Under the pieces are notes generated by a model. That model was not told the origin of the DNA, did not search any database, and worked only from the letters and a program-made list of their open reading frames with translations. A stretch of 64,000 nt of DNA from Enterobacter phage vB_Ent31, in sequence record OR567511.1; one strand, 5' to 3'. Shown piece after piece: positions 5,704-11,545 of the stretch. A program made the translations under genes and the position numbers. The first letter of the stretch is position 1; each line of letters begins with the position of its first letter.

Positions 5704-5737
5704 AGGGCATTAAAATTGTTGTATTTATATGCAACAA

Positions 5738-5759
5738 CGCCCCGTCCGAAGACAGGGCG
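5738..5759 (-). terminator. UUCG-tetraloop hairpin / terminator
   Basis: Minus strand reads CGCCCTGTC-TTCG-GACGGGGCG followed by TTGTTGC. It sits in tandem with the 5667-5703 terminator. Confidence 0.45.
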
Positions 5760-5962
5760 TAAGAATCGACAGCACCACCCACTGGCAGATGGTCTGCAGA
5801 TGTTCATTCCCAGCGACTCGGAGGCATCAGTCTCGCCACTGGAAATATAGCGCCGTGGAGGTTATGCTTGCGACAGGGAACAACCGACTAGCGGCAATGG
5901 AAAACCATTCTCTTCTAACACGACGTCTCAACGAGGGCATACGCAAGTTTCCCTTCGAATTT

Positions 5963-6037
5963 GGTGCCGATTGCAGGAGTCGAACCCGCGGCATCTTCAT
6001 TACAAGTGAAGCGCTCTACCAGCTGAGCTAAATCGGC
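5963..6037 (-). tRNA. tRNA-Thr (anticodon UGU)
   Basis: Reverse complement GCCGATT..CTTCA-CTTGTAA-TGAAG..GCGGG-TTCGACT-CCTGC-AATCGGC folds as a cloverleaf with a 7-nt loop. T4 also encodes tRNA-Thr. Confidence 0.75.
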
Positions 6038-6039
6038 TT

Positions 6040-6135
6040 AAGACGGAAATAAGGATTCGAACCTTATGTAGTTGCACAGACGTATCTGCCGTTGAATTCC
6101 TCACTAAGTTTAAGCAACTATTCCCGGGGTCTTAA
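6040..6135 (-). ncRNA. tRNA-like element; the acceptor stem cannot be resolved
   Basis: Has a perfect T-arm (ATAAGG-TTCGAAT-CCTTAT), but no 5' strand complementary to the 3' end was found. Possibly a class II tRNA or a stable RNA like T4 species 1/2 (rnaC/rnaD). Confidence 0.3.
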
Positions 6136-6140
6136 TTTGG

Positions 6141-6222
6141 TGCATCAAGAGGGATTCGAACCCTCAATCCTTTCGGCGGAAGATTTTAAGTCTTCTGTGT
6201 ATACCAGTTCCACCATTGATGC
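6141..6222 (-). tRNA. tRNA-Leu (anticodon UAA), class II with a long variable arm
   Basis: Acceptor GCATCAA/TTGATGC with TGG (CCA) encoded. Anticodon arm GAAGA-CTTAAAA-TCTTC. T-arm GAGGG-TTCGAAT-CCCTC. T4 also has Leu(UAA). Confidence 0.6.
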
Positions 6223-6231
6223 GAAATTTGG

Positions 6232-6313
6232 AGCTAGGAGTGAGATTCGAACTCACGAAGGGATACCCGGCGGATTTGCAATCCGCTGCCTTTGGCCACT
6301 CAGCAACCCTAGC
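6232..6313 (-). tRNA. class II-type tRNA with anticodon GCA (formally Cys); atypical
   Basis: Acceptor GCTAGGG/TCCTAGC. Perfect anticodon arm GCGGA-TTGCAAA-TCCGC. 13-nt variable region. T-arm GTGAG-TTCGAAT-CTCAC. Confidence 0.45.
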
Positions 6314-6320
6314 AAATTGG

Positions 6321-6395
6321 TCGAGGTAGAGGGATTCGAACCCGTCGACCTGTGGATTAGAAGTCCACTGCTCTATCCAGCTGAGCTATACCCCG
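6321..6395 (-). tRNA. tRNA-Arg (anticodon UCU)
   Basis: Acceptor CGGGGTA/TACCTCG with CCA encoded (6318-6320). Anticodon arm GTGGA-CTTCTAA-TCCAC. T-loop TTCGAAT. Confidence 0.7.
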
Positions 6396-6396
6396 A

Positions 6397-6523
6397 GTGT
6401 GTTCAGACAGGACTCGAACCTGTAAGCATGTTCTTGCGGCGTTTTACCACCATCGTCAGCGTATGATTCAATACGCGAACTCAAAAGGTGTTGGACCCCT
6501 TGTCTACCAATTTCAGCACTGAA
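6397..6523 (-). ncRNA. ~127-nt tRNA-like stable RNA candidate
   Basis: The 3' part has a T-arm (ACAGG-TTCGAGT-CCTGT) and acceptor strand CTGAACA. Its complement TGTTCAG lies about 120 nt upstream, which is too long for a tRNA. The size matches T4 species 1/2 RNAs (rnaC/rnaD). Confidence 0.3.
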
Positions 6524-6535
6524 CAACTTTATTTA

Positions 6536-6763
6536 TTACATATCAACTTGTGTAAACCAGTTGATTTTGAAATACTCATCAAAATGAAGAGCAGGCTCAA
6601 CTTGAGTATCCTCCTCAAGAAGAATTAAATTCTTTCTTACAAGAGGGTCAAGATGAGTTGTGTTTAAGCAACTATCATGCCAATATGTAAGTACTCTATT
6701 AGATTCGGCGGTATCAACAAGATAACGAACATTCATATCAGGATGTCGGTACAGATTAATCAT
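6536..6763 (-). CDS. hypothetical protein (75 aa)
   Basis: ORF only. Confidence 0.35.
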   Translation of the reverse strand: MINLYRHPDMNVRYLVDTAESNRVLTYWHDSCLNTTHLDPLVRKNLILLEEDTQVEPALHFDEYFKINWFTQVDM

Positions 6764-9709: not shown

Positions 9710-9806
9710 ATATTTTTCAGGATGGACGCCACTCTACATTTATGGGTCGAGTCTCCATCATAAAACGTCACGGTCCTCGGCGATTTTCCGTGGTCTGAAA
9801 ATTTGG

Positions 9807-9878: not shown

Positions 9879-9886
9879 AAATTTGG

Positions 9887-10040: not shown

Positions 10041-10109
10041 ATGGAAAGCTAATCATCTAATTGTTGATGTACCACTGCTATGGACAGTGTTTAACTTTCA
10101 TAAATTTGG

Positions 10110-10197: not shown

Positions 10198-10283
10198 TGG
10201 TGAAGGAAGTGTCATATAGACACAATTCGCTTAGCGACAGCCACAGCGTTTTGCGGGCCGTGTATTTTTCCACCATTCCTTCA
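10198..10283 (-). ncRNA. tRNA-like element with a perfect acceptor stem and CCA, but no canonical T-loop
   Basis: Reverse complement is TGAAGGA...GTGTC-TATATGA-GACAC-TTCCTTCA-CCA. The 7-bp acceptor is perfect, CCA is encoded, and it is about 86 nt long. The T-loop is TATATGA instead of TTCRAAT. Confidence 0.3.
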
Positions 10284-10363: not shown

Positions 10364-10458
10364 ATCAATATTCACTCCATCATGAGGACTTCATACGAAA
10401 TTAAGAGAAGAATGATTAGTTCAACCCCTGTAGACGCGTTGAATGAATATTAATTTGG

Positions 10459-10613: not shown

Positions 10614-10773
10614 TTTATCCGGGTTCTTGAAGTACTAACAAGTAGCTTGATGTAGAACACGCTAAAGATATAATCTTCCGAATATAGAGCTTATCCCGTG
10701 GGAACAAACAGCTTCGTCCTCGGCATTATCTTATAGGACTCAAACTCATCTTCAAGAACTGCCTCATATTTGG

Positions 10774-10847: not shown

Positions 10848-11096
10848 ATAAATTTACTTTCGTGAGTATGGGATTACCCTCAAGCCTTCCGGAAAGCTGA
10901 ATAGGCGTTATTGGCTCTCATATACCCGTGCACAGATATAATCTTCATTAACACAATAACTTCATCAATATACTCCGAAAGTAAACTTTCGGCGCCGTAT
11001 TTAATTTGAGCTATGTGGTTATCGTTGAGGGAACTCATAGTCAGGGATTAAAGTGCCGACGACTTTGTCAGAACGTCTTCCAACTTCTATATTTGG

Positions 11097-11178
11097 CGGG
11101 TCGTGCAGGTATCGAACCTGCCTAGTCATTTCTGACACGGATTAACAGTCCGCCGCTTACCCTCTCAGCCAACGACCC
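11097..11178 (-). tRNA. class II-type tRNA with anticodon GUU (formally Asn); atypical
   Basis: Acceptor GGGTCGT/ACGACCC. D-stem 3 bp. Anticodon arm GCGGA-CTGTTAA-TCCGT. 15-nt variable arm with stem GTCA/TGAC. T-arm GCAGG-TTCGATA-CCTGC. CCA encoded. Confidence 0.5.
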
Positions 11179-11337: not shown

Positions 11338-11378
11338 GTAGATATTTATAATATCAAAAATATCTTTAAGCAAATTGG

Positions 11379-11451
11379 TGGGAATAACTGGACTCGAACC
11401 AGTGACCTAACGATTATCGGTCGTTTGCTCTACCAACTGAGCTATATTCCC
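11379..11451 (-). tRNA. tRNA-Ile (anticodon GAU), copy 2
   Basis: Acceptor GGGAATA/TATTCCC. Anticodon arm AACGA-CCGATAA-TCGTT. T-arm ACTGG-TTCGAGT-CCAGT. CCA encoded. Confidence 0.7.
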
Positions 11452-11460
11452 GGAATTTGG

Positions 11461-11545
11461 TGGGGAGTGATGGAGTCGAACCACCCGAGTCGCAATGACA
11501 ACAGATTTACAGTCTGCACCGCTACCTCTACGGAATTAACTCCCC
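11461..11545 (-). tRNA. tRNA-Tyr (anticodon GUA), class II
   Basis: Acceptor GGGGAGT/ACTCCCC. Anticodon arm GCAGA-CTGTAAA-TCTGT. Long variable arm. T-arm GGTGG-TTCGACT-CCATC. CCA encoded. Confidence 0.75.

Follow-up and report, generated by a model that had tools for sequence, protein, structure and literature searches.

We analyzed a 64,000-nucleotide (nt) stretch of the genome of Enterobacter phage vB_Ent31 (sequence record OR567511.1; hereafter the window) and found that three elements lying among its tRNA genes, designated E1, E2 and E3, are structured RNAs on the tRNA strand and are under selection. E1 is located between tRNA-Leu and tRNA-Thr, E2 upstream of tRNA-Arg and E3 between tRNA-His and tRNA-Ser; the non-tRNA stretches that hold them are 6137-6038, 6526-6396 and 10287-10192, respectively, and the gaps to the neighbouring tRNA ends are 0-5 nt. 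The initial annotation of the window had described three elements that carry tRNA hallmarks and cannot be folded canonically, and had offered them either as counterparts of the stable RNAs rnaC and rnaD of phage T4 or as novel tRNA-derived RNAs. All three were indeed present between genuine tRNA genes, on the minus strand (Table 1), conserved structure and covariation were clearly found in homologous phages, and their existence, structure and tRNA ancestry were supported. The proposed relationship to T4 rnaC and rnaD was not borne out, as described below. We consider that E1-E3 are probably three separate non-decoding tRNA-derived families, excised from the tRNA precursor as stable RNAs that consist of a tRNA frame plus an insert.

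We call the three elements tRNA-like because in each a 7-base-pair (bp) acceptor stem directly abuts a 5-bp T stem. None of them is a canonical tRNA: when the whole window was scanned, E1, E2 and E3 received no ARAGORN call and, even at E<=10, matched neither the Rfam tRNA family RF00005 (gathering threshold 29 bits) nor, two weak YrlA matches apart, any other Rfam family. None of the three has a 5-bp stem closing an anticodon loop of 7 nt that contains U33. Since neither program called a tRNA and the sequences at the loop position vary among relatives, we take the elements to be unable to decode. The strand was indicated by conserved G-U pairs (alignment columns 10-91 and 46-62 of E1 and 49-70 of E2), which become A-C mismatches on the opposite strand. 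Small open reading frames (ORFs) overlapping the elements were unsupported, the conservation pattern being that of RNA pairing. ARAGORN called no transfer-messenger RNA (tmRNA) in the window, and two matches to YrlA (23.5-24.2 bits against a gathering score of 69) were rejected as an artefact of the tandem arrangement because each covers the T arm of one element and the 5' half of the next real tRNA.

The first element, E1, had been described as a perfect T arm with no acceptor. The T arm was confirmed, but an acceptor-like stem is present, since CCGGGAA pairs with UUUCCGU immediately next to the T stem. In an alignment of 12 E1 sequences from five lineages (A3), this stem covaried across all five lineages and occurred as CCGGGAA/UUUCCGU, AGUAGAA/UUCUACU, AUCGAGA/UCUCGAU or UUCGGGA/UCCCGAU. 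The inner stem was UAGUUGC/GCAACUA or UAGUCU/AGACUA, the stem of the hairpin capped by UACG was CAGA/UCUG or CGGA/UCCG, and the T stem was UAAGG/CCUUA or GUAGG/CCUAC. Across the five lineages, 91.5% of the alignment cells were paired as compared to 36-42% with slid partners; seven pairs had changed on both sides, and none of 500 shuffles reached the observed covariation score. While the surrounding stems change, the strand between the inner stem and the hairpin is essentially invariant (consensus UUAAACYUAGUGA(N)GGAAUUCRA) and is kept across five lineages and four host genera. The sole hairpin at the anticodon position is the one that bears the UACG tetraloop. A covariance model of E1 (R1) scored the window copy, which was part of its training set, at 110 bits and the copies of phages S16, CF1, N1M2, Moabite and 2050HW at 81-106 bits; real tRNAs scored 15-25 bits over the full tRNA length.

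By blastn, E1 was found in 85 phage records. The window copy is 100% identical to those of Klebsiella phages of the genus Jiaodavirus (JD18, for example); among Enterobacter phages, a single record carries it. The E1 core also occurs in the Salmonella phages S16 and STML-198 (Gelderlandvirus), in Citrobacter phage CF1 (Moonvirus), and in the jumbo phages Klebsiella N1M2 (Nimduovirus) and Serratia Moabite and 2050HW (Moabitevirus); all of these copies outside Jiaodavirus lie in a tRNA region. An exact-motif scan yielded seven true copies in viral contigs, and in metagenomes it returned Jiaodavirus-like copies only. In bacterial genomes the scan gave 25 matches, none with a downstream T loop; we regard these as chance matches, and thus E1 has no host counterpart there. 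Upstream of the E1 copy of N1M2 we noted an unannotated tRNA-like element (L010, 1359-1470) that the E1 model scores weakly, at 13.8 bits. In Salmonella phage S16, small 'hypothetical protein' ORFs, gp74.1-74.3, are annotated downstream of tRNA-Arg (L008, 1499-1910); gp74.3 overlies the E1-like RNA and is probably a spurious ORF.

The second element, E2, has the T arm and 7-bp acceptor reported for it. RNAalifold gave a cloverleaf with a D arm, a short variable hairpin and a 5-bp anticodon stem, and this stem encloses 52 nt, continuing through a 4-bp helix into a 9-bp hairpin rather than closing a 7-nt loop. No CCA is encoded, and the discriminator base is unconserved (C, A or U). The sequence at the loop position also differs among relatives (UCCAA vs ACGGA). 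In this form, which we call E2a, 98.3% of the cells were paired as compared to 30-45% when slid, and four pairs had changed on both sides. E2a was found at full length by blastn in 143 records, at 95-100% identity in Karamvirus-like phages and ~80% in Jiaodavirus, always just upstream of tRNA-Arg. A second form, E2b, shares the acceptor, D and T arms and has a very different inner sequence. It was present in 75 records from Jiaodavirus, Karamvirus, Marfavirus, Kanagawavirus, Winklervirus, Kagamiyamavirus and others; 13 of its 32 pairs had changed on both sides over six genera, some in the D stem and in both inner helices among them, and its internal loops hold the conserved motifs UUUGAAAC and AGUAAG. 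The architecture of E2 is kept across at least eight phage genera at 71-80% identity, and E2a and E2b each occur in both Klebsiella and Enterobacter phages.

A covariance model built from E2b sequences only (R3) found the window E2a at 6392-6530 with 76 bits (E = 1.4e-14) over its full length, model positions 1-139, and we therefore treat E2a and E2b as one family with alternative inserts. After the E2 family, the next-best matches of R3 were genuine tRNA-Leu genes at 31-40 bits (40.5 for T4 and 35.1 for the window). Because of these scores and the Leu-type D loop (AAAUYGGUAGA) and T loop (GGUUCRAGUCC) read from the sequence, we conclude that E2 descends from tRNA-Leu. It shares with tRNA-Leu the 7-bp acceptor, the 3-bp D stem, the 5-bp anticodon stem, the variable hairpin and the T arm, and differs by a structured insert of ~50 nt in place of the 7-nt anticodon loop, with no anticodon and no CCA. 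We also considered E2 as an intron-containing tRNA-Leu and rejected it: a group I intron would need a much larger insert, and neither U33 nor an anticodon can be read from the flanking loop bases, which vary among relatives. In GenBank the element is unannotated apart from record TNG87, which labels E2b a 128-nt 'tRNA-OTHER, anticodon NNN'. Citrobacter phage CF1 carries an unannotated E2-like element (L009, 2602-2737; 36 bits with the E2 model) just upstream of tRNA-Gly.

The third element, E3, has the shape of a tRNA with a long variable arm. Its perfect acceptor, encoded CCA and odd T hairpin were as reported, and the CCA is followed by AAU, the same CCA-AAU junction as in the real tRNAs of the cluster. 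The hairpin at the T position, GUGUC-UAUAU-GACAC, has a 5-bp stem that abuts the acceptor and a 5-nt loop instead of a T loop. The D stem has 3 bp and its loop lacks GG, the variable hairpin is UCGC-UAA-GCGA, and the anticodon-like arm is made of irregular stems with the loops CAAAACG or CAGUCAUGC. E3 was found in 120 phage records at 90-100% identity, almost all of them Klebsiella Jiaodavirus and only one from Enterobacter. Two alleles differ mainly in the anticodon-position arm, where the closing pair shows a compensatory change from G-C to A-U. Outside that arm there are three isolated changes: the T-position hairpin has a U-A to U-G change and an insertion of 3 nt, and the trailing junction differs at one base.

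The elements come and go as units. E1 is missing from PG7 and Mineola, where tRNA-Leu and tRNA-Thr adjoin, and the presence or absence of elements (E1 in these two phages, rnaC in the window) coincides exactly with tRNA boundaries. In the window, E1 and E3 are 100% identical to Jiaodavirus copies while the neighbouring E2 is only ~80% identical. The near-identity to JD18 around E1 (~5945-6137) runs through tRNA-Thr and ~80 nt beyond, and since this tract extends past the element we attribute the exchange to ordinary recombination between co-infecting phages. As judged from these comparisons, the tRNA cluster of the window is a recent mosaic of Karamvirus and Jiaodavirus lineages, and E1-E3 are optional cassettes swapped between phage genera. 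Apart from the elements themselves, we noted a segment of Citrobacter phage CF1 that shares 95% identity with spacer 9803-9710; in CF1 it belongs to a row of cassettes that also holds an E1-like element, an rnaD-like one and a copy of spacer 10770-10614.

In the explanation that we favour, the kept module would be the 7-bp acceptor helix stacked on the T-arm hairpin, recognized by processing or binding factors, and E2 would additionally keep a Leu-type D arm whose GG docks on the T loop. The anticodon loop would have been replaced by the ~24-nt invariant strand and UACG hairpin in E1, by a three-helix arm of ~50 nt in E2, and by an irregular arm with two alleles in E3. Lying on the same strand and in the same transcription units, the elements would be co-transcribed with the phage tRNAs and released by tRNA maturation, that is, by the RNase P cut of the downstream tRNA and by 3' trimming at CCA-AAU junctions; RNase P might also act on their own acceptor/T module. 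They would then accumulate as stable RNAs of 85-130 nt, like T4 species 1 and 2. The tRNA frame would confer stability and correct ends, while the inserted arm would be the working part that binds a protein or RNA partner. Our guess at the likeliest class of partner is a host tRNA-binding factor, for example a tRNA-targeting defence nuclease that meets an uncleavable look-alike.

Several points weigh against this explanation. Transcription, processing sites and stability of E1-E3 are inferred. E1 and E2 encode no CCA, and the acceptor helix of the window E1 runs to ~12 bp with paired ends, which could hinder rather than help RNase P. The case for E3, with two alleles and one compensatory pair, is thinner than those for E1 and E2. 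The search for a partner found none, the invariant strand of E1 matching the 16S, 23S and 5S ribosomal RNAs of E. coli no better than shuffled sequences do. A role in cis in shaping the precursor, which we think unlikely, must also be counted here.

Under that alternative, the elements are folding units that act only in cis, separating tRNAs and guiding or pacing RNase P, RNase E or RNase III before being discarded. An end-to-end helix of 7-14 bp, where shuffled sequences average only ~2 such pairs, closes eight of the nine non-tRNA spacers of the cluster, which would suit such a role, as would the position of the elements only 0-5 nt from tRNA ends. The same closing helices also mark the spacers as discrete units and in this respect speak for the favoured explanation. 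E2, moreover, always heads a tRNA run, before tRNA-Arg or tRNA-Cys, with the E2-like element of CF1 placed before tRNA-Gly. However, PG7 and Mineola mature the same tRNAs without E1, and E1 moves independently of its neighbours, having tRNA-Arg, tRNA-Thr, tRNA-Ser or no tRNA beside it in different phages. A spacer role also leaves unexplained the 24-nt invariant strand of E1 and the internal-loop motifs of E2b, and T4 species 1 and 2 are stable rather than discarded (PMC9697503).

A more specific form of the favoured explanation is that E1-E3 are traded anti-defence cassettes, uncleavable tRNA look-alikes that titrate nucleases of the PrrC, RloC, PARIS or Septu type or other tRNA-binding factors. 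What led us to this guess is recent work on defences that cleave tRNAs, together with the cassette behaviour and with variation that centres on the anticodon-position arm; we think it rather unlikely. Such an RNA would present a tRNA-shaped body without a cleavable anticodon or variable loop, and the alternative inserts (E2a and E2b, and the two alleles of E3) would reflect an arms race. The tRNAs of phage T5 counter the tRNA-cleaving defences PARIS and retron Eco7. Similarly, the tRNA-Tyr of T6 counters Septu (PMC13096335). E1-E3 resemble these tRNAs in being accessory RNAs of phage tRNA clusters that are exchanged between phages, and the arm that such nucleases would recognize or cut is the variable part of E2 and E3. 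The anti-defence tRNAs, on the other hand, are working tRNAs that replace cleaved host tRNAs, while the non-decoding E1-E3 could at most be look-alikes that soak up the enzyme.

That the elements are decaying tRNA pseudogenes, dead and functionless copies retained between useful genes, seems very improbable to us. The clear descent of E2 from tRNA-Leu, the degenerate D and T loops of E3, the inability of any of the three to decode and their presence or absence among close relatives would all fit decay. Yet compensatory changes keep every helix, those of the non-tRNA inserts included (7 pairs in E1, 4 in E2a and 13 in E2b), and 91-98% of the cells are paired in E1 and E2. Nor would decay be expected to leave the non-tRNA strand of E1 invariant over five lineages and four host genera, to preserve the architecture of E2 over at least eight genera at 71-80% identity, or to see E1 transferred between unrelated phage families.

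The stable species 1 and 2 RNAs of T4, of about 120-140 nt, have been known since the 1970s. Also named RNAs C and D, they derive from the tRNA region, with the gene order tRNA-Arg, rnaD, rnaC, and what they do is still unknown (PMC3014915, PMC9697503). They share with E1-E3 a small size, a non-coding nature and a place among the tRNA genes of a T4-like phage, on the strand of the tRNAs, and they too are patchy among relatives, JS98 having rnaD without rnaC and the window lacking rnaC. In addition, the non-tRNA arms of rnaC are framed by a T arm and an acceptor-like closing stem, and in phage S16 the E1-like element follows tRNA-Arg directly, the place of rnaD in T4. For these reasons we considered E1-E3 as orthologs or diverged copies of rnaC and rnaD, a relationship that we now regard as extremely unlikely. 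Alignment with blastn-short and nhmmer gave only a generic 11-mer of the T loop, and covariance models showed no relationship. On T4 rnaC, R1 scored 12.9 bits (E = 3.2) and R3 scored 13 bits, both below ordinary tRNAs, and neither model found anything in rnaD.

Rfam has no family for either RNA. We built an rnaC model (R2) from T4, PG7, VIPECLOM01 and fHe-Yen9-01. Its fold combines an acceptor-like stem and a T arm with a long arm and a hairpin of 10 bp, and 17 of its 46 pairs covary. R2 scored its training sequences at 170-177 bits and Jiaodavirus-like contigs outside the training set at 73-82 bits over the full length; in the window, by comparison, it reached at best 17.5 bits, on the genuine tRNA-Ile 11373-11463, with no match in E1, E2 or E3. 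The rnaC orthologs of the sister Karamvirus phages lie between tRNA-Trp and tRNA-Gly (PG7, L003:5744-5602, 79.7% identical to T4 over 143 nt; VIPECLOM01, L022:601-753), and that of Yersinia phage fHe-Yen9-01 lies at a locus without annotated tRNAs nearby. In the window, tRNA-Trp (9958-9884) and tRNA-Gly (9878-9804) are 5 nt apart (junction 9879-9883), so the rnaC site of the genus is empty and rnaC is missing from this phage. Both the GenBank record of PG7 and ARAGORN make a 95-nt 'tRNA-Met(cat)' of the 3' 95 nt of its rnaC, which is a mis-annotation.

A sequence resembling rnaD was found elsewhere, at 11093-10985. An rnaD profile, started from T4 and JS98 and extended by iteration to a Jiaodavirus-like contig (L016) and CF1, had a single match in the window, at 11066-10988 (E = 0.066 over 1.3 Mb; the ortholog site of PG7 gave E = 0.024). 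The locus shares with rnaD a 5' hairpin with a GACG loop, AAGUCGUCGG, UCCCUG and UYCCCUC, and it forms all six pairs of a long-range helix, GUCGUCG/CGGCGC, which covaries in CF1. RNAalifold gave no useful consensus for the rnaD family plus the window sequence, and the long-range helix alone was supported. As judged from these shared features, the locus is quite likely a diverged counterpart of T4 rnaD (species 2 RNA). The profile, the long-range helix and AAGUCGUCGG had no match in E1, E2 or E3. Two sets of shared short words were followed as homology leads, CAACUAC before the T arm (E1 and rnaC) and GGAAUU with UGAGUAAGG (rnaD, E1 and E2b); we dismissed the rnaD words because they fall in a segment that is unconserved in JS98, L016 and CF1 and because the covariance models show no relationship. 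The architectures differ as well: rnaC has a long arm at the D position and a 10-bp hairpin, unlike E2 with its normal D arm and long arm at the anticodon position, and rnaD has no T arm at all, while E1 lacks the anticodon arm. On these comparisons, E1-E3 appear to be homologs of neither rnaC nor rnaD.

Scarcely credible, finally, is the view that mobile DNA left E1-E3 behind as its ends or remnants, be they miniature inverted-repeat elements or footprints of homing endonucleases, and that their terminal inverted repeats act as DNA. In its favour, the limits of presence and absence fall exactly on tRNA boundaries, the window E1 and E3 match Jiaodavirus copies perfectly, and related tRNA clusters hold homing endonuclease genes (segB in T4, a seg-like gene in Merci, HNH in N1M2). 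Against it, the E1 identity tract continues into tRNA-Thr and thus E1 did not move alone, the supposed inverted repeats show the covariation of RNA pairs and contain G-U pairs that are strand-specific, the elements carry T-loop and D-loop motifs of tRNAs, and no target-site duplications were seen.

The favoured explanation, a tRNA frame carrying an insert, has parallels in known RNAs. Ponchon and Dardel reportedly engineered a 'tRNA scaffold' in which an RNA of interest is grafted on the anticodon stem of a tRNA and is processed and protected by E. coli like a tRNA. E2 has the same design, and by this analogy it would be a natural counterpart of the laboratory construct. The tRNA-like domains of tmRNA and YrlA similarly keep acceptor and T-arm features and have another functional domain in place of the anticodon region; they differ from the present elements in that the window has no tmRNA call and the YrlA matches are far below the gathering score.

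With E1-E3, new families join a kind of RNA that is known but unexplained, that of T4 species 1 and 2. The T4 RNAs are therefore no oddity of T4: in T4-like phages, and in some jumbo phages too, the tRNA clusters hold several unrelated non-decoding tRNA-shaped families, each with good comparative support and each gained, lost and swapped like an accessory gene. An isolated puzzle thus becomes a class with testable features, namely the single-stranded motifs of E1, the Leu frame with inserts of E2 and the arm alleles of E3. If the look-alike proposal were true, it would by analogy suggest a function for T4 RNAs C and D. There is also an annotation gap, as the elements are unannotated or mislabelled in GenBank ('tRNA-OTHER', 'tRNA-Met' for PG7 rnaC, spurious ORFs in S16); E1, E2, rnaC and rnaD are absent from Rfam and are candidates for submission as new RNA families.

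The phage of the window is a T4-like Enterobacter phage. Its 6.3-kb tRNA region is 98.8% identical to that of Enterobacter phage EnC07 (Karamvirus, Tevenvirinae) and ~93% identical to that of PG7. We counted 20 tRNA genes, all on the minus strand: 19 were called by ARAGORN, and Rfam found the same 19 plus a tRNA-Tyr-like gene. No promoter was found by a sigma-70 scan just upstream of E2, where an A/T-rich box overlaps the stop codon of ORF 6536-6763.

Table 1. Positions of E1-E3, their parts and neighbouring features in the window (paired strands are given 5' strand first)
Feature	Position	Strand	Sequence or remark	Basis
E1, tRNA-like RNA without anticodon arm	6038..6137	(-)		minimum free energy (MFE) fold; five-lineage alignment A3; model R1
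E1 acceptor-like stem	6127-6121 / 6049-6043	(-)	CCGGGAA/UUUCCGU; adjoins T stem directly	MFE fold
E1 helix extension in the window phage	6134-6128 / 6044-6038	(-)	UUAAGAC/GUCUUAA	MFE fold
E1 inner stem		(-)	UAGUUGC/GCAACUA	fold and alignment
E1 invariant strand, ~24 nt	6113-6090	(-)	UUAAACUUAGUGAGGAAUUCAACG	alignment A3
E1 UACG-capped hairpin	6089-6076	(-)		fold and alignment
E1 T arm	6066-6050	(-)	UAAGG-UUCGAAU-CCUUA, perfect	fold and alignment
E2 (subtype a), tRNA-Leu-derived cloverleaf	6396..6526	(-)	long variable arm; no anticodon loop	RNAalifold; model R3
E2 acceptor, 7 bp	6525-6519 / 6406-6400	(-)	UGUUCAG/CUGAACA	RNAalifold
E2 D arm	~6516-6502	(-)	loop AAAUUGGUAGA	RNAalifold
E2 anticodon-position arm with its 5-bp stem	6499-6439	(-)	continues into ~60-nt arm	RNAalifold
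E2 short variable hairpin	6438-6426	(-)		RNAalifold
E2 T arm	6423-6407	(-)	ACAGG-UUCGAGU-CCUGU	RNAalifold
E3, tRNA-like RNA of long-variable-arm shape	10198..10282	(-)		fold z = -3.97; two alleles compared
E3 acceptor, 7 bp	10282-10276 / 10208-10202	(-)	GAAGGAA/UUCCUUC, perfect	fold
E3 A73 and encoded CCA	CCA 10200-10198	(-)		sequence
rnaD-like locus, none of E1-E3	10985..11093	(-)	between tRNA-Asn and tRNA-Asp	iterated nhmmer profile
tRNA run 1	11545-9557	(-)	ends in terminator-like hairpin 9550-9525	
Lone tRNA-Met	8641-8566	(-)		ARAGORN/Rfam
Run E2, tRNA-Arg, tRNA-Cys, tRNA-Leu, E1, tRNA-Thr	6526-5962	(-)	in order of transcription	ARAGORN and Rfam for tRNAs
Genuine tRNAs flanking or separating E1 and E2	5962..6395	(-)		ARAGORN, Rfam
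Five further non-tRNA spacers	9710-9803, 10041-10106, 10364-10455, 10614-10770, 10848-10984	(-)	no T arm; 7-14-bp closing helix	

The run that contains E1 and E2 is followed, after tRNA-Thr, by a 237-nt non-coding stretch (5725-5961, minus strand) that ends in a GC-rich, terminator-like hairpin near 5770-5735, a hairpin absent from the pattern-scan list. This stretch, 84-86% conserved in Jiaodavirus, contains a hairpin stem that is fully compensated (CCAGUGGC/GUCGCUGG vs CUUUGGAU/GUUCAAAG) around a conserved loop, GAGACUGAUGCCUCCGAG, and it lies where the tRNA-Arg sub-cluster ends, the place that rnaD and rnaC take in T4. The stretch probably encodes a further structured RNA.

Among the tRNA genes, the tRNA-Tyr-like gene (11461-11545, minus strand, anticodon GUA) scored 39 bits with Rfam and was not called by ARAGORN; it is labelled 'tRNA-Pseudo-GTA' in Cronobacter phage Pet-CM3-4 and 'tRNA-Tyr' in EnC07. 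A long variable arm is normally restricted to Leu, Ser and Tyr tRNAs. In the window, tRNA-Cys(GCA) (6229-6313) and tRNA-Asn(GUU) (11094-11178), both on the minus strand and each 85 nt long, also have one, and tRNA-Cys carries U73. The anticodons of both differ from that of Tyr (GUA) by one base, and the two might have originated from a tRNA-Tyr-like gene.

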